Source: a virus (Duplodnaviria; Heunggongvirae; Uroviricota; Caudoviricetes). From it: DNA of 40,159 nt. Below, in pieces: positions 2,235 to 34,769 of this stretch (position 1 is the stretch's first letter; each line of letters opens with the position of its first letter). The stretch covers positions 128,001 through 168,159 of IMG/VR virus record IMGVR_UViG_3300029983_000009. The stretch is one strand, 5' to 3'. The notes under the pieces are model-generated. The model ran no database searches and was not told the DNA's origin. It worked only from the letters and a program-made list of their open reading frames with translations. A program made the position numbers and the translations under genes.

Positions 2235-3453
2235 TTATTTAATAAAAGCAAATACAAGTTTCATTGGACAAACTGGATATAATGCCCATTCAAGAGATTT
2301 CTTTACAGCACTAAGCAAAAAAAATCCTTTGACTATTAGAAATTTTACAGTAGGAAGTAGTTGGAGTGGATTAGGTTCAAAAATGTCAAATGGTAAATAT
2401 GGAGATCCTCACACAAAAGAAAAATATTTAAATAATTATCAAAGAAAATTAATATCTGAGCAATCATTACATTCAGAACCAAAAACAGAAGGATATTATA
2501 ATGGCTTGTGCGATTATGAAATAAATGATGGACTTGATTACTTAAATAAATATAAATCTAATGATATTATAAATATTGTACTTAATGGAAATGATCATCC
2601 ATATTTTCATTGTATTGATAAATATAAAGGATTTAAAATAGTATATAATGCTTGGGAATCAACAACATATGATGATGTTTTTTTTGAATTATTGAAGAAA
2701 TATGATCAATTTTGGTGTCCATCAGAATGGCAACGTAAATGTATAATAAATCAAGGATATCCAGAAGATAAAGTGTTTGTTGTACCTGAAGCTGTGGATG
2801 GTACAATATTCAATCCTGATTATTTCAATTCAAATTTAGATTTGTACAAAGACAATAGATTTAAATTTGTAATGTTTGGTAAATGGGAATATAGAAAATC
2901 TACAATTGAAATAATAGAAACATTTTTAAATACATTTAAAAAAGATGAACCAGTAGATTTAATATTATCGGTTGATGATAATAACAATTCAACTGATGGA
3001 CTCAAATCAACAGAAGATAGGTTATCATATTTTAATCTTAATGATGATAGATTGAAAGTTTTACATTTTGTAGATAGAAATGATTATATAAATTATTTGA
3101 AAAATGGTCATGTATTCTTATCTTGTGCAAGGTCAGAAGGTTGGAATCTTCCATTAATAGAATCTATGGCTTGTGGAACTCCATCAATATATTCTAATTG
3201 TAGTGGTCAATTAGAATTTGCAGAAGGAAAAGGACATCCTGTTAAGATTTTAGGTGAAAAAAAATCTCCTTATTGCTCTGGTAATTATTATGAACCAGAT
3301 TTTGATGATTTATCAAAAGTTATGAGAGATGTATATGTAAATTATTGGAAATATAAAGAAAAATCGATAAAAGAGTCAGAAATAATAAGAAATGAATTCA
3401 CATGGGAAAAATCTGCTGATAAAGCAATTAAAATACTAAATAATATAAAATGA
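2227..3453 (+). CDS. GT-B fold glycosyltransferase (GT1/GT4-like)
   Basis: C-terminal half contains EGWNLPLIESMACGTPSI, the classic 'glycosyl transferases group 1' E-x7-E region, plus a G-rich loop. 408 aa. Confidence 0.7.
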   Translation: MNNYLIKANTSFIGQTGYNAHSRDFFTALSKKNPLTIRNFTVGSSWSGLGSKMSNGKYGDPHTKEKYLNNYQRKLISEQSLHSEPKTEGYYNGLCDYEINDGLDYLNKYKSNDIINIVLNGNDHPYFHCIDKYKGFKIVYNAWESTTYDDVFFELLKKYDQFWCPSEWQRKCIINQGYPEDKVFVVPEAVDGTIFNPDYFNSNLDLYKDNRFKFVMFGKWEYRKSTIEIIETFLNTFKKDEPVDLILSVDDNNNSTDGLKSTEDRLSYFNLNDDRLKVLHFVDRNDYINYLKNGHVFLSCARSEGWNLPLIESMACGTPSIYSNCSGQLEFAEGKGHPVKILGEKKSPYCSGNYYEPDFDDLSKVMRDVYVNYWKYKEKSIKESEIIRNEFTWEKSADKAIKILNNIK

Positions 3454-7832: not shown

Positions 7833-9116
7833 GTGCCAACAATAAAATTAGCTACAAATAGAATAACTATAAATACATCAGGTGTTACATCATCAAATGT
7901 GTCATCATCATTGAATGGTAATATTAATTTGATAAAATCACAAATAGCTCAAAAAACTAATGATTATATTAACATTAAAAACGCAGTTAATATATTAGAG
8001 ATATATTCAAATTGGAATGGCTACATAAAAATTTATACTGAAGTTCAAAGTAACTTTGTAATAGGTGATACTGCATACATTACATATACTTCAACATTAT
8101 CGGGAAATACAATATTTAACCTTGAAAATCCTTCTGTGCCTGATGAGGGTAGAAATAGATTTTATTTAGGATATAAAATATTATATATTAATCAATCAAA
8201 AAATGAAATTGTAATAAATAGACATTATAACGATATTCCTACTGGATATTCTTTGAAAAATCAACAAATAAGTAAAATATCATGCAGAGGAGGATATTTA
8301 TATAAATCTATATCTGATGGTGCCGTTTTTTATAATTGTAATATTCTTAACATTGGATTTTCAACAATAAGTGGAATTGTCAGTGTTGGAGGAGTTCCAA
8401 TTTCAGGAGTAATGATTACACTATCAGGGACAAAAAAAATTCACATAACAGATTCAAATGGATATTATATTTTAAATGCTATAAAAGGTGAAAATATAAT
8501 AAAAAGTTATATGAATGGATATATTATAAATACTACAAGTGTACTTATAAACTCAGAAGATAAAATAACTCAAAATATACCAATAAATCAAGGAGAAAAT
8601 AAAATAACTATATATTCTGATATATTACCTAATTTATTTGATGGTAAAGTTTCAGTTTGTTTAAATTATTACATCAATTTCACATCAACAACAATAGGAT
8701 ATTCAACTAATACCACCTATCAATGGTATATTATTAGAAATGAAAATGAAATTTTAGTAGGAACTAATAATATAAAATTATCTTATAATAACTTTAACAT
8801 GAATGATATTGTATATTGCATTGTTACAGATAAGGATTTTAATATTAATAGCAGAAGTAACAATTTTACTATAGATGTTTTATTACCATCAGTTTATATT
8901 TATGCTGATAAAACTACTATTACAGAAGATGATATTGTTACTTTTACTGCAGTTAATCAATGTTATAAAAATCCATCCTTCCAATGGACTATAAATGCAG
9001 AATCAGTAGGAACAAATAACAATGAATACAAAACAAAAATTTCAAAGGATTCAACTGTATTATGTTTAATGGGTAATATTACTAGTAATCCAATAAAAAT
9101 AACTATAATTCAATAA
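7833..9116 (+). CDS. putative structural protein with a carboxypeptidase-regulatory-like beta-sandwich domain
   Basis: GTG start. The segment GIVSVGGVPISGVMITLSGTKKIHITDSNGYYILNA resembles CarbopepD_reg-like domains. N/T/S-rich with repeated internal segments. Confidence 0.45.
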   Translation: MPTIKLATNRITINTSGVTSSNVSSSLNGNINLIKSQIAQKTNDYINIKNAVNILEIYSNWNGYIKIYTEVQSNFVIGDTAYITYTSTLSGNTIFNLENPSVPDEGRNRFYLGYKILYINQSKNEIVINRHYNDIPTGYSLKNQQISKISCRGGYLYKSISDGAVFYNCNILNIGFSTISGIVSVGGVPISGVMITLSGTKKIHITDSNGYYILNAIKGENIIKSYMNGYIINTTSVLINSEDKITQNIPINQGENKITIYSDILPNLFDGKVSVCLNYYINFTSTTIGYSTNTTYQWYIIRNENEILVGTNNIKLSYNNFNMNDIVYCIVTDKDFNINSRSNNFTIDVLLPSVYIYADKTTITEDDIVTFTAVNQCYKNPSFQWTINAESVGTNNNEYKTKISKDSTVLCLMGNITSNPIKITIIQ

Positions 9117-30424: not shown

Positions 30425-30646
30425 ATGAACGTAGAAACTGAAAAAATAATAACTGATATAAAAGAGGTAATATCATCATTAAATGTTATTATTACTGGTA
30501 ACACTGGAATAATATTGATAGACAACAAACTTATATATTCAACCCAAGGTGATGTGACAGATCAACTTATTCAAAGTTATTTATCTGGATTACATAGAGG
30601 AATATTAAGTGGAATGAAATATCAAAATAACCAAAAAATTAAATAA
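30425..30646 (+). CDS. small protein, paralog 2 (MNVETEKI...IYSTQG family)
   Basis: NVIITGNTGIILIDNKLIYSTQG. Confidence 0.5.
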   Translation: MNVETEKIITDIKEVISSLNVIITGNTGIILIDNKLIYSTQGDVTDQLIQSYLSGLHRGILSGMKYQNNQKIK

Positions 30647-31387
30647 ATGGATCACGAAATCACTATAAAATCTCCATTAAAAATTATTTGTGTAAATCCA
30701 AAGGCATCTACAAAATTACTAAAAGGAGGTGTGTATTATGCAACTGAATTGTATAATACTGGCGCTGGTACAAATAGTGAAAAAAGAGTTCTTATAAAAG
30801 GATTAACATATTATTCAGCTATTAATTTTAAATTAGAAAATGGAGAATGTTTAGATAATCAAGAAACTTTCATTGTATCATCAAAATCATTAGATGCTGA
30901 GAATATTGACTATACTGGACAATATGTTAGATGTAATCATAGTGACTCAAGTCACACAAAAGAAGGATCAATTTATTATGTACAATCTCAATTCAATAAA
31001 CGCCGAACTGGATATTCATTTGATTATTACTATCTAAAATTAAGTGGAATAAATAAAAATGTATATGCATATCAATTTGATGAGATTTCTATAAGTGAGC
31101 AAAGAAAATTAAAATTAAATAATATTAATGGAATTCAAATTGAAACTGGAAACATCAGAAAATTTACACAATATTCAGAAAAAGAAAAAATTGTCATTTT
31201 CTTACAAGGTTTAATAAAATCATTATCAGATATTAACAAAACTGAAAACTCAAATGAAATAAATATAGACATTTATAAGTCAATAGTTAATAAAAGCAAA
31301 AAATATGATGCAATAGAAAAAGATTTTGAAGAATTTCTTAAACTTGACATAAAAACTATACTCGAAATGTATAATATAAAAATATAA
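30647..31387 (+). CDS. hypothetical protein (246 aa)
   Basis: ORF that starts immediately at the upstream stop. Confidence 0.5.
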   Translation: MDHEITIKSPLKIICVNPKASTKLLKGGVYYATELYNTGAGTNSEKRVLIKGLTYYSAINFKLENGECLDNQETFIVSSKSLDAENIDYTGQYVRCNHSDSSHTKEGSIYYVQSQFNKRRTGYSFDYYYLKLSGINKNVYAYQFDEISISEQRKLKLNNINGIQIETGNIRKFTQYSEKEKIVIFLQGLIKSLSDINKTENSNEINIDIYKSIVNKSKKYDAIEKDFEEFLKLDIKTILEMYNIKI

Positions 31388-31495
31388 CGTTGTCATAAAT
31401 GATTATTGGTAATAAGTGGTAAGTTAGTATATCTGGGAAGATAGAAACACTAATAATAGCACTTATTTTTTTTATATATAAAAGAAAAATGAAGC

Positions 31496-31768
31496 ATGAA
31501 GCATATCAAGATTTATGAATATTTTAAAGATAATATAGAAATAGATAACTATGATTTGGCACTTGAATTAGAATTCAAATTTAGAACATCTAATCAAGAA
31601 GATAAGAAAAATAAAAGCATCTTTGATGTTTTAAATGAATTAGGTATTCAGAAAGGAGATTTAACTGGAGTAGATTTAGGAAAAATTCTACAACTTCAAA
31701 TGAAATTCAAAAAACAATCTGATGAAGAATTCTTAAAAATGTACAATGAACACATAAAAAAACTCTGA
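31496..31768 (+). CDS. small protein with the family-type N-terminus MKHIKIYE
   Basis: The N-terminus matches the family but the C-terminus (HIKKL) does not. Followed by a terminator hairpin. Confidence 0.45.
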   Translation: MKHIKIYEYFKDNIEIDNYDLALELEFKFRTSNQEDKKNKSIFDVLNELGIQKGDLTGVDLGKILQLQMKFKKQSDEEFLKMYNEHIKKL

Positions 31769-31793
31769 AATTTAAATTTCAGAGTTTTTTTAT
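31756..31793 (+). terminator. hairpin plus T7, immediately upstream of the tRNA cluster
   Basis: AAAAAACTCTGAAATTTAAATTTCAGAGTTTTTTT. Confidence 0.5.
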
Positions 31794-31794
31794 G

Positions 31795-31866
31795 TTCTCA
31801 CACCAGGAATCGGACCTGGATTATTTGTTCCAAAAACAAATGTAATAGCCTTTATACCATATGAGA
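31795..31866 (-). tRNA. tRNA-like gene, anticodon UUG (Gln) read by eye, with an atypical T-loop (C55)
   Basis: Minus strand reads TCTCATA/TGTGAGA acceptor, 3-bp D stem, anticodon stem TTTGT/ACAAA with loop TTTTGGA, and T arm CCAGG-TCCGATT-CCTGG. 72 nt cloverleaf. Confidence 0.45.
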
Positions 31867-31874
31867 ATGTATTG

Positions 31875-31945
31875 TTGTTCATGAAAGGATCAAACTTTCT
31901 CTCCAAAATCCAAATTTTTGTGTGCTATCTTTACACCAATGAACA
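31875..31945 (-). tRNA. tRNA-like gene, anticodon UUG (Gln) read by eye, with a non-canonical T-loop
   Basis: Perfect 7-bp acceptor TGTTCAT/ATGAACA. Anticodon stem CAAAA/TTTTG with loop ATTTGGA. T arm GAAAG-TTTGATC-CTTTC. Confidence 0.4.
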
Positions 31946-31955
31946 ATATAATTTG

Positions 31956-32040
31956 TCGCCTTAGTGGGGTTCGAACCCACAAGCTCATATGAGCATCAGT
32001 TTCAAAGACTGACATGTTTAGCCAATTCCATCACAAGGCA
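31956..32040 (-). tRNA. tRNA-like gene with a long variable arm (type II) and apparent anticodon UUG
   Basis: Canonical T arm GTGGG-TTCGAAC-CCCAC. Anticodon stem TCAGT/ACTGA with loop CTTTGAA. Variable-arm hairpin GCTCA-TAT-TGAGC. Acceptor has G-U pairs at both ends. 85 nt. Confidence 0.45.
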
Positions 32041-32054
32041 GTGACATTCTATTG

Positions 32055-32126
32055 TTGCTCTATTAGGATTCAAACCTAAACTGCAGGATCCAGATTCCTG
32101 ATTGCTATCATTACAAACATAGAGCA
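32055..32126 (-). tRNA. tRNA, anticodon CUG (Gln)
   Basis: Perfect acceptor TGCTCTA/TAGAGCA. Anticodon stem CAGGA/TCCTG with loop ATCTGGA. T arm TTAGG-TTTGAAT-CCTAA, which is canonical. 72 nt. Confidence 0.55.
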
Positions 32127-32319
32127 TTATATAAACAAAAAATCCAACTTAAAAAGTTGGGCATAAAAAAACCCAAACCATTTCAGGATTGGGTAAAAAG
32201 TAAACATGATTCTAACCCAATCAAACGTAAGTTTGTTGTTGTTGCTGAATCATATTTAAAATATTGTTGTTCATAAGAATTTTAATTTTTATTGTAATGT
32301 ATATAGTAATATAAAAATA

Positions 32320-32523
32320 TTAAGTTTTTTCTATTTTTAATGCTTCTAAATCTTTTTTTGTTGCTATTTCAAGCAACTGTATATATTCATGTAATTCTAA
32401 ATCACACAGTCTGTTTTTTTCGAATAATCTGAACATTGTTTCCCATCTATCAGATTCATTCCAATCTAGTAAATAATAATATCCTCTACCTGGAACTAAT
32501 GTATCATCTATTAACTCTTTCAT
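32320..32523 (-). CDS. hypothetical protein (67 aa)
   Basis: ORF. Its GC content is locally higher. Confidence 0.4.
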   Translation of the reverse strand: MKELIDDTLVPGRGYYYLLDWNESDRWETMFRLFEKNRLCDLELHEYIQLLEIATKKDLEALKIEKT

Positions 32524-32739
32524 TATTATTAAATAAAATTATTTATTATTATATTATAACTTTTTAATTTTTAAAACTCTCACTGAATTTTCATCAGTGA
32601 GAGGTTTTCAAAAATTATGAAATTAGAAATTAAACGTCAGTTGTTTCACAACAAGTAGTAGACATTATAAAAGCACAACAAAGATAATACAAATATTTTT
32701 ATTGCGCAAGTTTTTTTATATATAAATATAAAATATTTT

Positions 32740-33171
32740 ATGAATCATATCAAATCATATAAAATATATGAATCAGAAGGATGGAATAAAGATGTTGACT
32801 GGAAATATGTCATAGAACATCCTGATGATAAAAGTGATGAAGCAAGTTTAATTAGAGATTTACAGGAAAAACTAGATGATGTGATATCTATGTTAGATAA
32901 TTATAACATATTCGAAATTGTTAATATTAAAGGAAATGATTTAGATTATGGTTCTTATGCGATAGTTAGTATATTTGATAAAAACTATAAAATAAGTGAA
33001 GTATATTCAATAGATAAATTATGCATTGAAGATTTTCCAATAAATAATCCTAATGAAGATGAAACAACTGGATATATAGGAGATACAAATGAAATAGCAG
33101 AATTATTAAATATGATTTATAAATCTGGCGGAATGGAAATATACCAATCAATAAAAAAATATAATATATAA
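32740..33171 (+). CDS. family-related protein, tandem paralog 1 (MNHIKSYKIYE...KKYNI)
   Basis: Paralog of the next ORF. Shares EASLI..L.E.LD and FPINN with it. The end is KKYNI. Confidence 0.55.
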   Translation: MNHIKSYKIYESEGWNKDVDWKYVIEHPDDKSDEASLIRDLQEKLDDVISMLDNYNIFEIVNIKGNDLDYGSYAIVSIFDKNYKISEVYSIDKLCIEDFPINNPNEDETTGYIGDTNEIAELLNMIYKSGGMEIYQSIKKYNI

Positions 33172-33175
33172 AAAT

Positions 33176-33622
33176 ATGAAGCACTTAAAACAGTATAAAA
33201 TATATGAGGCAGGAGAATGGAGCAGAGGGATTAATTGGGAATATGTCAAAGAAAATCCAGATGATGACAGTGAAGAAGCAAGTTTAATTAAATATTTAGA
33301 AGAAAGATTAGATTATATAATTTCAAATTTAGATGACGATAACATATTAAAAATTGATGATATCAGGGGACATGATTTATATCAAGGTGCTTATGCATTA
33401 GTTAAAATATTTGGGGTAAGATATACTATATGGAACACTGGCGCTCAATCAGGAGGATCAGAAGATACATTATATATTGAAGGATTTCCGATAAATAATC
33501 TTGATGAAGATTCAAATCCTGGATTTATTGGTGTTCCTAATGATATATATGATTTATTGAATTGTATTTATCAAGTTGGAGGAATAGAAATATATAAAAC
33601 AACAAAAAAATATAATATCTAA
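33176..33622 (+). CDS. family-related protein, tandem paralog 2 (MKHLKQYKIYE...KKYNI)
   Basis: See the previous ORF. Confidence 0.55.
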   Translation: MKHLKQYKIYEAGEWSRGINWEYVKENPDDDSEEASLIKYLEERLDYIISNLDDDNILKIDDIRGHDLYQGAYALVKIFGVRYTIWNTGAQSGGSEDTLYIEGFPINNLDEDSNPGFIGVPNDIYDLLNCIYQVGGIEIYKTTKKYNI

Positions 33623-33623
33623 C

Positions 33624-34769
33624 ATGAAATATATATATTCATTCAAAGAAATAAATGAATCAAATTTAGAACAAACTAAAAATTATCTTACTATATTATT
33701 TGAAAATGAAAATTGGAAAATTGAAAAAGCTAATTCATTTGAAGCATTAACTGAGTGGTCAGAAGATGGTAATATTAATATGAGTTCATATAAAGGAAAT
33801 TTTGAGAATCTTTTTTTAAATACAAACAAAAAAACTGATGATAAAATAGTATTTGATTTTGATAGAGGTGATTTTTATACATTAGATGACGATAATATTG
33901 ATTTGAAAGAAACAATTGAAGATAATACTGAACTACTAAATTTCTATGGAGAAAATCTTAACTGCAAAAATATTGTTAAAGATGATGATGAATATTGGTT
34001 AGTTATTGATGATTATAAATTCTTTGTTGACTATTTTAAGGTAGATAGCAACACATCAAATGATTTAATATCAACAGTTTTATCTGGTGATTCTTATGAT
34101 ATATTTGATTATCATAATACAGAGTTTAGTATCACTGAAAGCATGAAATTATCTAAAGATAATTTAGATTTAATTAAAATAATACTAGCACTTGAACTAA
34201 TTAATAATGGTTATGATTATGATATTGATGATATTGATGATTATTCTGATGCTGTTGATATAATAGAAGAGAATGAAATGGAAGAATTTAAAGATATTTT
34301 ATTAAATTGTATTCGTTCAGGACATGAATCTGCAGATGCTGATGAGGCTTGGAATGATATAATAAAAGAAGCATATTCATTCTTTAATATATTAAAAGAT
34401 TCTAATAAATGGGAATATCATAATAATAGTAAAGAAAAAATGCTATGGATAAAATTTGAAAATTCAACTGACGCATACAAAGCAAAATTTATAATTAATA
34501 AATATGATGATAGTTATCAAGATGATGTGATTAATTATTCACAACCTTACTATGGTTATACTGGAGACATTAAAAATATAATTGAAACTTTCAATGAAGT
34601 CTTACCAGATAAAATATATGAATATGGTAGTGATACAGTAGATAGAGACGATATTAGTGATTCTTATGATATATTCACAGAACAAAAAGAGAAAAATCCT
34701 GATATAAAAGTATCTGACATAATTGAAAATTTAAAAATGTATTTAGATACTAAAAAATTTAACATATAA
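33624..34769 (+). CDS. KFN(I/L) family protein, large and acidic (381 aa)
   Basis: MKYIYSFKEINE ... TKKFNI. D/E-rich. Confidence 0.55.
   Translation: MKYIYSFKEINESNLEQTKNYLTILFENENWKIEKANSFEALTEWSEDGNINMSSYKGNFENLFLNTNKKTDDKIVFDFDRGDFYTLDDDNIDLKETIEDNTELLNFYGENLNCKNIVKDDDEYWLVIDDYKFFVDYFKVDSNTSNDLISTVLSGDSYDIFDYHNTEFSITESMKLSKDNLDLIKIILALELINNGYDYDIDDIDDYSDAVDIIEENEMEEFKDILLNCIRSGHESADADEAWNDIIKEAYSFFNILKDSNKWEYHNNSKEKMLWIKFENSTDAYKAKFIINKYDDSYQDDVINYSQPYYGYTGDIKNIIETFNEVLPDKIYEYGSDTVDRDDISDSYDIFTEQKEKNPDIKVSDIIENLKMYLDTKKFNI

Follow-up and report, generated by a model that had tools for sequence, protein, structure and literature searches.

Why does a phage carry particular tRNA genes, and how are these genes regulated? 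The question is raised by a locus with four tandem tRNA genes that all decode glutamine. It lies in a 40,159-nucleotide stretch of the IMG/VR record IMGVR_UViG_3300029983_000009 (positions 128,001 to 168,159), termed the window here; its source is an uncultured jumbo phage. On the minus strand the order is orf67, a short leader open reading frame (ORF), an attenuator region, the four tRNA-Gln genes and a terminator, and the whole locus is best read as one minus-strand transcription unit. Judging by sequence and predicted folds, we consider it likely that the leader region is a ribosome-mediated leader-peptide attenuator, which would give feedback control of tRNA-Gln supply. Sequence elements, conservation, covariation and folds were computed; from these we infer leader translation, transcription-translation coupling and regulated read-through.

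An earlier note, made from the letters alone, had described four head-to-tail cloverleafs on the minus strand at 31795-32126. Its coordinates were right: in a focused scan with the Rfam model RF00005 (gathering score 29 bits) all four tRNAs exceeded the threshold, with E-values from 1e-11 to 4e-8, and the anticodons in the order tA to tD are CUG, UUG, UUG and UUG, as the note had read them by eye (three UUG, one CUG). The genes are:

32126-32055, minus strand: tA, tRNA-Gln(CUG), type I; Rfam 44.2 bits; anticodon loop AUCUGGA
32040-31956, minus strand: tB, tRNA-Gln(UUG), class II with a long variable arm; Rfam 47.3 bits; anticodon loop CUUUGAA; also called by ARAGORN
31945-31875, minus strand: tC, tRNA-Gln(UUG), type I; Rfam 48.4 bits; anticodon loop AUUUGGA
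31866-31795, minus strand: tD, tRNA-Gln(UUG), type I; Rfam 57.3 bits; anticodon loop UUUUGGA; also called by ARAGORN

Just beyond the genes, at 32130-32250, the note had seen the hairpins CCAACTT/AAGTTGG and CCCAA/TTGGG and had been unable to resolve them into a tRNA. Both hairpins are present and neither belongs to a tRNA; each followed by a run of T, they constitute two terminators, and the region as a whole is, by its sequence and modelled folding, a probable leader-peptide attenuator. Its elements are:

32300-32308, minus strand: motif TACTATATA, found once in the window
32274-32221, minus strand: leader ORF of 17 codons plus UGA, encoding MNNNILNMIQQQQQTYV; read from the sequence, coordinates verified
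32233-32247, minus strand: segment 1, the regulatory codons CAG CAA CAA CAA CAA; the sole run of at least four CAR codons on both strands of the 40 kb window
32202-32257, minus strand: hairpin P1, arms AAAUAUGAUUC (32257-32247) and GAAUCAUGUUU (32212-32202); from the minimum-energy leader fold
32215-32222, minus strand: segment 2, GAUUGGGU, the 5' arm of the antiterminator; overlaps the UGA stop codon
32165-32194, minus strand: terminator T1, ACCCAAUCC / GGUUUGGGU (segments 3 and 4), then U7
32137-32162, minus strand: terminator T2, CCAACUU / AAGUUGG (segments 5 and 6), then U6; from the terminator scan

The leader ORF reads ATG AAC AAC AAT ATT TTA AAT ATG ATT CAG CAA CAA CAA CAA ACT TAC GTT TGA. 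It lacks a Shine-Dalgarno motif, as is usual in the window, where one of 56 ORFs has one. The Gln codons, segment 2 and a small hairpin, H0 (CAAAC 32235-32231 / GUUUG 32226-32222), all lie within P1. When the 5' part of the leader is masked, mimicking a ribosome that has stalled at these codons, segment 2 pairs with ACCCAAUC (32194-32187). Furthermore, GCCCAA (32162-32157), at the start of the T2 region GCCCAACUU...AAGUUGG, is complementary to UUGGGU of segment 4, which allows a 4:5 pairing. The distance from leader to tRNA-Gln array is 95 nucleotides, and tA begins about 10 nucleotides past the U-run of T2; hence there is no space for an internal promoter. The motif TACTATATA, in extended form TACTATATA(C/T)A, lies 3-25 nucleotides upstream of the leader ATG in most variants of the module, the leader mRNA of some variants then being almost leaderless. 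It may be a promoter element for the leader transcript, perhaps a dedicated one.

According to the proposed mechanism, the attenuator would sense the capacity to decode glutamine and set the share of transcripts that reach the tRNA genes. With ample Gln-tRNA, the ribosome would pass the five Gln codons, reach the UGA and cover segment 2; segments 3 and 4 would then form T1, segments 5 and 6 would form T2 as a back-up, and transcription would end before the tRNAs. Untranslated RNA would be off as well, with segment 2 sequestered by P1 and by CAA:UUG pairing. When CAA or CAG is decoded slowly, the ribosome would stall on the Gln codons and leave segment 2 free to pair with segment 3; the freed segment 4 would pair with segment 5, and with no terminator formed RNA polymerase would enter the four tRNA genes. 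The new tRNA-Gln would lift the stall and so close a negative loop.

The switch emerged in folds of the nascent transcript and in folds that included T2. For the whole leader (32274-32137), corresponding to RNA without a ribosome, P1, T1 and T2 were predicted together at -36.1 kcal/mol with z = -4.6 (the two z-scores for the minimum free energy of the leader were -4.5 and -4.6). The fragment 32222-32137, with segment 2 free as behind a ribosome stalled on the Gln codons, folded into 2:3 and 4:5 with neither terminator (-20.4 kcal/mol), and 32210-32137, with segment 2 covered by a ribosome at the stop codon, gave T1 and T2 (-18.1 kcal/mol). Nascent transcripts of 10 variants were folded with the RNA ending in the T1 loop. 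With a stalled ribosome modelled, the antiterminator was predicted in 10 of 10; with the ribosome at the stop codon, segment 3, the 5' arm of T1, was unpaired in all 10; without a ribosome, P1 formed in eight. The 4:5 hairpin appears whenever T1 does not form: among the six variants having T2, its energy in the nascent fold was -7.7 to -9.9 kcal/mol in five, and in the sixth, L040, the full stretch had this hairpin as its minimum-energy structure (-7.8 kcal/mol).

Related metagenomic phage contigs yielded at least 14 distinct variants of the leader, and tRNA-Gln follows the leader wherever the contig extends far enough. A degenerate leader pattern matched 34 loci in viral contigs; 13 of them had a short Gln-run ORF with hairpins, and tRNA-Gln followed at 13 of these 13 and at none of the 21 others. 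A second leader pattern matched 47 loci in metagenomes, 12 with a Gln-run ORF and hairpins, and again tRNA-Gln followed at all 12 and at none of the remaining 35. Searched against 185,579 cellular species genomes, the second pattern gave 20 matches, none with the Gln-run leader architecture and none with tRNA-Gln. Taken together, tRNA-Gln was present at 0 of 76 other pattern matches (21 viral, 35 metagenomic, 20 cellular). Two routes that do not depend on the leader were also followed. Searching with the anticodon arm of tB yielded nine viral contigs from two further lineages, both with the leader; protein homologues of orf67 led to five more variants (L125/L126, L128, L133, L135 and L136), all with a run of 4-5 Gln codons and with tRNA-Gln genes. 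As searched, the module was absent from GenBank phages, Rfam and the 185,579 cellular genomes, and a type I tRNA-Gln D-arm pattern run over the viral contigs found nothing.

In all variants the leader ORF has 13-24 codons with 4-5 consecutive Gln codons; examples of the peptide are MKNLSNNIMIQQQQQITV, MMANLFNMVQQQQISV, MKNLLIAVQQQQTDSV and MNKNISNMTQQQQQTFV. Insertions and deletions in the leader are multiples of three, and close relatives differ mostly synonymously. The arrays comprise 1-4 tRNA-Gln genes; most of those seen to their end have both UUG and CUG anticodons, and L042, L069 and L078 have UUG only. At L044:5430-5640 (= L066), a small Cys-rich ORF (MNKGRRNELTRLKFKKRLEQLG...) separates the attenuator terminator from the tRNA-Gln genes, and in this lineage the attenuator would control a protein-coding gene too. 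Leaders with cognate codons were also sought ahead of 60 non-Gln tRNAs from the retrieved loci, and none analogous was found, which makes tRNA-Gln look like a specific bottleneck. MCIIIGKQLV upstream of a tRNA-Ile, the lone weak match among the 60, is probably due to chance, and generality is not claimed.

Covariation was counted on helix arms taken by sequence anchors, after the MAFFT leader alignment (A1) had misplaced the 3' arm of T1. For T1, 96.6% of cells were paired and four of eight pairs were compensatory, which none of 500 shuffles reached. The antiterminator (2:3) was paired in 98.9% of cells, with 11 distinct variants. Segment 3 substitutions (C to U at three positions, A to G at one) without exception leave a wobble pair with segment 2, and segment 4 changes alongside, restoring the Watson-Crick pair. 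As helices most commonly evolve through transitions of this kind, the co-change is modest evidence. In L128 one position shows matching changes across segments 3, 4 and 5 (C to U, G to A and C to U, respectively), which supports the 4:5 pairing. Compensatory changes were also found in the T2 stem of relatives, and P1 and H0, the latter extending from the last Gln codon to the stop, show A-U, G-U and G-C exchanges. RNAalifold independently recovered P1 and H0 with compensatory pairs, including CAA:UUG between the Gln codons and segment 2.

The leader region thus combines a cognate-codon ORF, mutually exclusive hairpins and intrinsic terminators before the genes to be regulated, and the predicted mechanism matches the sequence-testable defining features of ribosome-mediated attenuation. 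No Rfam family reached its gathering score over 32137-32274. A permissive scan gave leader-overlapping matches at E-values of at least 0.13, far under threshold, and the weak matches to His, Thr and Phe leaders fell on the downstream terminator and tD; similarity of the module to known leader families in Rfam was detected neither by sequence nor by covariance model.

Several points weigh against regulation by attenuation. Most variants were retrieved by patterns that require the Gln run and TGATTGGG, so that the invariance of both is partly circular; the invariance of segment 2, partly forced in this way, also makes the shuffle control for the antiterminator uninformative. The CAA repeat itself pairs with segment 2, and its conservation could be partly structural and unrelated to decoding. 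In L133 (730-800) the usual UGA is out of frame, giving a 24-codon leader (MKMNYSNMAQQQQTSKFDWICCV, then a stop); segment 2 is GAUUGGAU and the terminator ACUCAAAUC/GAUUUGAGU, and the antiterminator is not predicted by the simple model. In L040 and L042 the antiterminator formed in nascent folds even without a ribosome. Equilibrium folding without T2 still gave the terminator as the minimum-energy structure in six of 10 stalled-state models; these variants, and those with a single terminator, need a kinetic, co-transcriptional argument. Some jumbo-phage polymerases may disregard intrinsic terminators, and more tRNA would be of no help if glutamine itself were limiting.

The tRNA genes show several unusual features of their own. 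The earlier note had pointed out non-canonical T-loops, and these were found as UCCGAUU in tD (with C55) and UUUGAUC in tC; that of tA, UUUGAAU, is unusual as well. The whole-window Rfam run called three of the four tRNAs. ARAGORN, which the note had proposed as a check, called tB and tD, both as Gln(UUG) on the minus strand, and missed tA and tC. In these two, U56 occurs together with a G-A instead of a G-G in the D-loop (AAUGAUA in tA, AAAGAUA in tC), a combination also present in the tA copy of the relative L001; this suggests an A19-U56 pair in place of G19-C56, which is probably the reason why ARAGORN misses both. The E. coli-type identity set of tRNA-Gln comprises U35, G36, a weak U1-A72, G2-C71, G3-C70, G73 and G10-C25, and U1-A72 is also read by GluRS2 and amidotransferases (PMC9976931). 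With YUG anticodons, all four tRNAs have U35 and G36. U1 and A73 are likewise common to all four; the first pair is U1-A72 in tA, tC and tD and a U1-G72 wobble in tB. G2-C71 occurs in tA, tB and tC, G3-C70 in none, and G at position 10 only in tC and tD, all by an E. coli-type set from which the rules of the host may differ. Stop-codon recoding by suppressor tRNAs was also weighed and rejected, since the anticodons read UUG and CUG and the standard code already gives dense ORFs.

Comparison of arrays revealed further peculiarities. The UCCGA T-loop, with C55 in place of the near-universal U55, was seen in three tRNA-Gln genes of three lineages: tD, L001:7226-7299 and the first array tRNA of L077. 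A comparison with L001, which is 78% identical, shows array positions 1 and 3 with exchanged anticodons, CUG...UUG in the window as against UUG...CUG in L001 (7408-7479, 7226-7299). Position 1 differs by a single C/T change; at position 3 the acceptor and T stems are kept and the D and anticodon arms differ, which suggests recombination between isodecoders. In the L077 array, tRNAs 2 and 3 have shortened anticodon loops (CUUGAA, ACUUGAC; ARAGORN label '???'), and the fourth gene of L125 (about 3160-3235) has the loop CAUUGAA with A33 instead of U33. These could be decaying copies, sequencing errors or real oddities.

One UUG species had been described in the earlier note as having a type II arm, and tB indeed has a variable region of 13 nucleotides, GCUCAUAUGAGCU, with a 4-5 bp stem. 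Its U1-G72 wobble, G2-C71, A73 and G18G19 are accompanied by a 3-bp D-stem with a G13/A22 mismatch, i.e. the class II layout: a variable stem-loop of more than 10 nucleotides, a 3-bp D-stem and unpaired positions 13/22. tB is most closely related to long-arm tRNA-Gln genes from other lineages (68-71% identity), of which one has a CUG anticodon. In an alignment of this family (A2), 96% of cells were paired and compensatory changes occurred in 16 of 25 pairs; every helix covaries, the variable-arm helix with four compensatory pairs of five. This contradicts the suggestion that the array might consist of diverged tRNA-derived repeats. The 1:72 pair was weak in nine of nine family members examined (U-G, U-A, A-U or U-U, never G1-C72); relatives of tB in other phages have U1-A72 or A1-U72, G2-C71 or G2-U71 and often G73, and the discriminator varies (A, G or U) in parallel to that of the type I tRNA-Gln genes.

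Class II tRNA-Gln genes were found in at least three unrelated phage groups. In L028/L029, from unrelated phages of higher G+C, a long-arm tRNA-Gln lies inside a cluster of 26-27 tRNAs. L124, a 257-kb contig of higher G+C, carries at 800-885 a class II tRNA-Gln(UUG) with A1-U72, G2-C71, G3-C70, U73, an encoded CCA and a D-arm near-identical to that of tB, in an ordinary tRNA cluster with no Gln leader. Long variable arms were also seen on tRNAs with Glu, Cys, Met and Asn anticodons in L066 (3017-5907), a relative of the window phage, and with Asn, Glu, Thr, Pro and Gln anticodons in L028 (2862-6115); a 95-nucleotide tRNA-Ile in L066 is an ARAGORN call to which Rfam gave no confirmation. Class II-shaped tRNAs of non-Leu/Ser/Tyr identity seem to be common in these phages, and the long arms on the Glu, Cys, Met and Asn tRNAs of L066 indicate that the extra arm is a habit of these phages and not specific to Gln.

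The long arm had been taken in the earlier note as an identity mismatch. Examination of the discriminator, the 1:72 pair and the variable arm did not bear this out: tB has a weak 1:72 pair, G2 and A73 in common with the type I genes beside it, its acceptor features appear Gln-like, and it sits behind a putative sensor made of Gln codons. Most likely, tB truly decodes Gln as one of a class II tRNA-Gln family carried by phages and is no mis-identity tRNA. Gln identity is the parsimonious reading; by its A73 and U35 the window copy could possibly be charged by LeuRS or TyrRS. Charging of tB with Leu, Tyr or Ser, the class II amino acids, by which CAA would be mistranslated on purpose or by accident, would agree with its A73, long variable arm, 3-bp D-stem with G13/A22, G18G19 and U35. 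In E. coli, A73 is crucial for Leu and LeuRS ignores the anticodon, and A73 with U35 is critical for Tyr (PMC9976931); furthermore, any CAA-decoding tRNA would lift the stall regardless of its amino acid. We nevertheless regard mischarging as quite improbable: G1-C72 occurs in none of the nine family members, the adjoining type I tRNA-Gln genes also have A73, other lineages have G73 or U73, which are unfit for Leu or Tyr, and GlnRS tolerates a class II body, an amber tRNA-Ser having become Gln-accepting after changes in two acceptor-stem pairs (PMC9976931). The locus might also lack regulation altogether, T1 and T2 being terminators of orf67, the leader ORF a chance occurrence and the tRNAs decaying repeats or genes with their own promoter. 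Short ORFs and A/T-rich hairpins are common at 23% G+C, and ARAGORN misses two of the four tRNAs. However, the Gln-run ORF, its frame, P1, 2:3, 3:4, 4:5 and the downstream tRNA-Gln are kept with compensatory changes in the leader variants, T2 and tA are so close together, all four tRNAs exceed the Rfam threshold and the family covaries; conservation largely refutes this reading, which we consider extremely improbable.

Two further explanations concern the choice of glutamine. The earlier note had expected CAA to be very frequent in so AT-rich a genome and the array to be a supplement for codon usage. A G+C content of 23%, a CAA:CAG ratio of about 9 to 1 and an array rich in UUG anticodons would suit this idea. 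Counting codons on the phage side contradicted it: glutamine accounts for 2.0% of the 11,367 codons in the window ORFs (CAA 205, CAG 23), and CAA, at 1.8%, is outside the 15 most used codons. Since Gln codons are rare, simple supplementation is a poor explanation; moreover, the abundant codons AAA, AAT, GAA, GAT, TAT and ATA have no tRNA in the window, and the conserved Gln-codon leader and switchable terminators would be left unexplained. We therefore judge a plain supplement improbable. Another reading shares the attenuator and sees it as counter-defence: a nuclease of the anticodon or acceptor-stem type, from the host or a competitor, would destroy tRNA-Gln, and the resulting stall would induce replacement isodecoders disguised by a class II arm, by T-loops with C55 or U56 and by varied anticodon-loop positions 32, 37 and 38. 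It would account for the 1-4 divergent tRNA-Gln genes that each phage keeps although Gln is rare in the proteome of the window phage (2%), and for the lack of such a leader before the 60 non-Gln tRNAs. Nucleases directed against tRNA-Gln are documented, to judge from the available passages of the sources: a paper on M. tuberculosis endoribonuclease (VapC-family) toxins names tRNAGln 23 times (PMC6459853), and one on CdiA-CT EC869, which cuts particular tRNAs in their 3'-acceptor region, names it 79 times (PMC9071432); the Pichia acaciae toxin PaT cuts the anticodon loop of yeast tRNAGln(UUG) (PMC3775755), and target-activated Cas13a cuts tRNA anticodons (PMC11042736). For phage tRNAs it has been suggested that they withstand host tRNases or stand in for host tRNAs so removed (PMC10264068). 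On the other hand, the odd features could reflect relaxed or AT-driven evolution, and the long arms on other tRNAs of L066 are not Gln-specific. Counter-defence is possible, if unlikely. In its fullest form, in which the attenuator would be a phage immunity sensor that converts the destruction of tRNA-Gln, through a stall on five Gln codons, into nuclease-escaping isodecoders, it is somewhat more doubtful still; if true, the phage would have an inducible counter-defence whose input is translation itself. Homeostatic feedback on tRNA-Gln supply is the most economical reading of the locus.

How does the module compare with known systems? As in the attenuators of trp, his, leu, thr, ilv and pheA, a short ORF contains consecutive codons for the amino acid to be sensed and has its stop codon beside segment 2; the hairpins 1:2, 2:3 and 3:4 exclude one another, a terminator of hairpin and U-run precedes the genes to be regulated, and an untranslated leader would mean an off state. 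The module differs from them in that the cargo consists of tRNA genes instead of enzymes, so that the product itself would lift the stall; in being phage-encoded and sensing Gln codons, with no Gln leader matched in Rfam; and in the six-segment relay over two tandem terminators found in the lineage of the window. In the pheST operon of E. coli, with its Phe-rich leader, and in T-box leaders of aminoacyl-tRNA synthetases, the availability of cognate charged tRNA sets a terminator/antiterminator switch, and here, too, such a switch would place a translation component under control of the cognate charged tRNA. However, pheST and T-box leaders regulate synthetases and the phage module tRNAs, and T-boxes bind uncharged tRNA directly without need of a ribosome. 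The E. coli tRNA-Phe genes pheV and pheU, examined for attenuator-like leaders, proved to be no precedent: in K-12 these genes have promoters directly upstream and no Phe-rich ORF.

Like the tRNA clusters of T4, T5 and mycobacteriophage cluster C1, the array is a tandem of tRNAs in a large lytic-type phage and includes isodecoders with non-canonical loops; unlike in those clusters, four of four genes decode one rarely used amino acid and lie behind a sensor of the cognate codons. Nematode V-arm tRNAs (Gly and Ile anticodons, Leu-charged) and bacterial allo-tRNAs also combine the class II shape with other anticodons. tB shares with them the variable-arm hairpin, the 3-bp D-stem and an anticodon of a class I-shaped family; it differs in an acceptor stem that appears Gln-like and not Leu- or Ser-like, and in belonging to a phage-borne family that is co-regulated, on the proposed mechanism, with ordinary tRNA-Gln genes. 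In the literature searched we found no regulated phage tRNA operon, no attenuator-controlled tRNA genes and no class II tRNA-Gln in phages.

The locus is bounded by two further features:

32320-32523, minus strand: orf67, 67 amino acids, from the ORF list; ends 46 nucleotides upstream of the leader ATG
31752-31795, both directions: bidirectional terminator, a 20-bp palindrome between A and T runs, from the terminator scan; kept in relatives

orf67 is probably the first gene of the leader/tRNA transcription unit. It had no Pfam match, and Pfam scans of neighbouring ORFs were uninformative. Homologues with 70-97% identity lie directly upstream of the same leader and tRNA-Gln module; more distant ones (40-55%), in the contexts L021-L024, L134 and P0008, occur without the array, so that orf67 is not obligatorily linked to the module. 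The bidirectional terminator ends both the tRNA operon and a convergent plus-strand ORF (31496-31768). Just upstream of the operon, on the opposite strand, two tandem paralogous ORFs (32740-33171 and 33176-33622, plus strand) are 52% identical (E = 7e-49); the next ORF, 33624-34769, has a similar KKFNI tail, and none of the three had a Pfam match.

The window has a G+C content of 21-27% (23% is given for the genome) and encodes a gp32-type single-strand DNA-binding protein, a Dam-type methyltransferase, a glycosyltransferase, and ankyrin and pentapeptide-repeat proteins. Searching 30600-33700 by blastn against GenBank phages gave no match; the relatives are IMG/VR and metagenome contigs of 181-501 kb. 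The A-rich sequences upstream of start codons, the scarcity of Shine-Dalgarno-like motifs and a CarboxypepD_reg-like domain found below threshold in a 427-amino-acid ORF (7833-9116) together weakly suggest a Bacteroidota-type host that does not use Shine-Dalgarno sequences for initiation.

Leader-peptide attenuation is a textbook mechanism known for amino-acid biosynthesis genes. The same logic here appears to control tRNA genes, for which we found no described precedent in phages or cells. A product that relieves its own inducing signal would constitute a minimal feedback loop for tRNA supply, and the two-terminator relay a compact natural design that sharpens an RNA switch. The class II tRNA-Gln family is useful for studying the rules of tRNA identity and possibly as an orthogonal scaffold. 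For the phages themselves, the module points to tRNA-Gln as a specific vulnerability during infection and would provide a testable answer to the question why phages carry particular tRNAs and how these are regulated.

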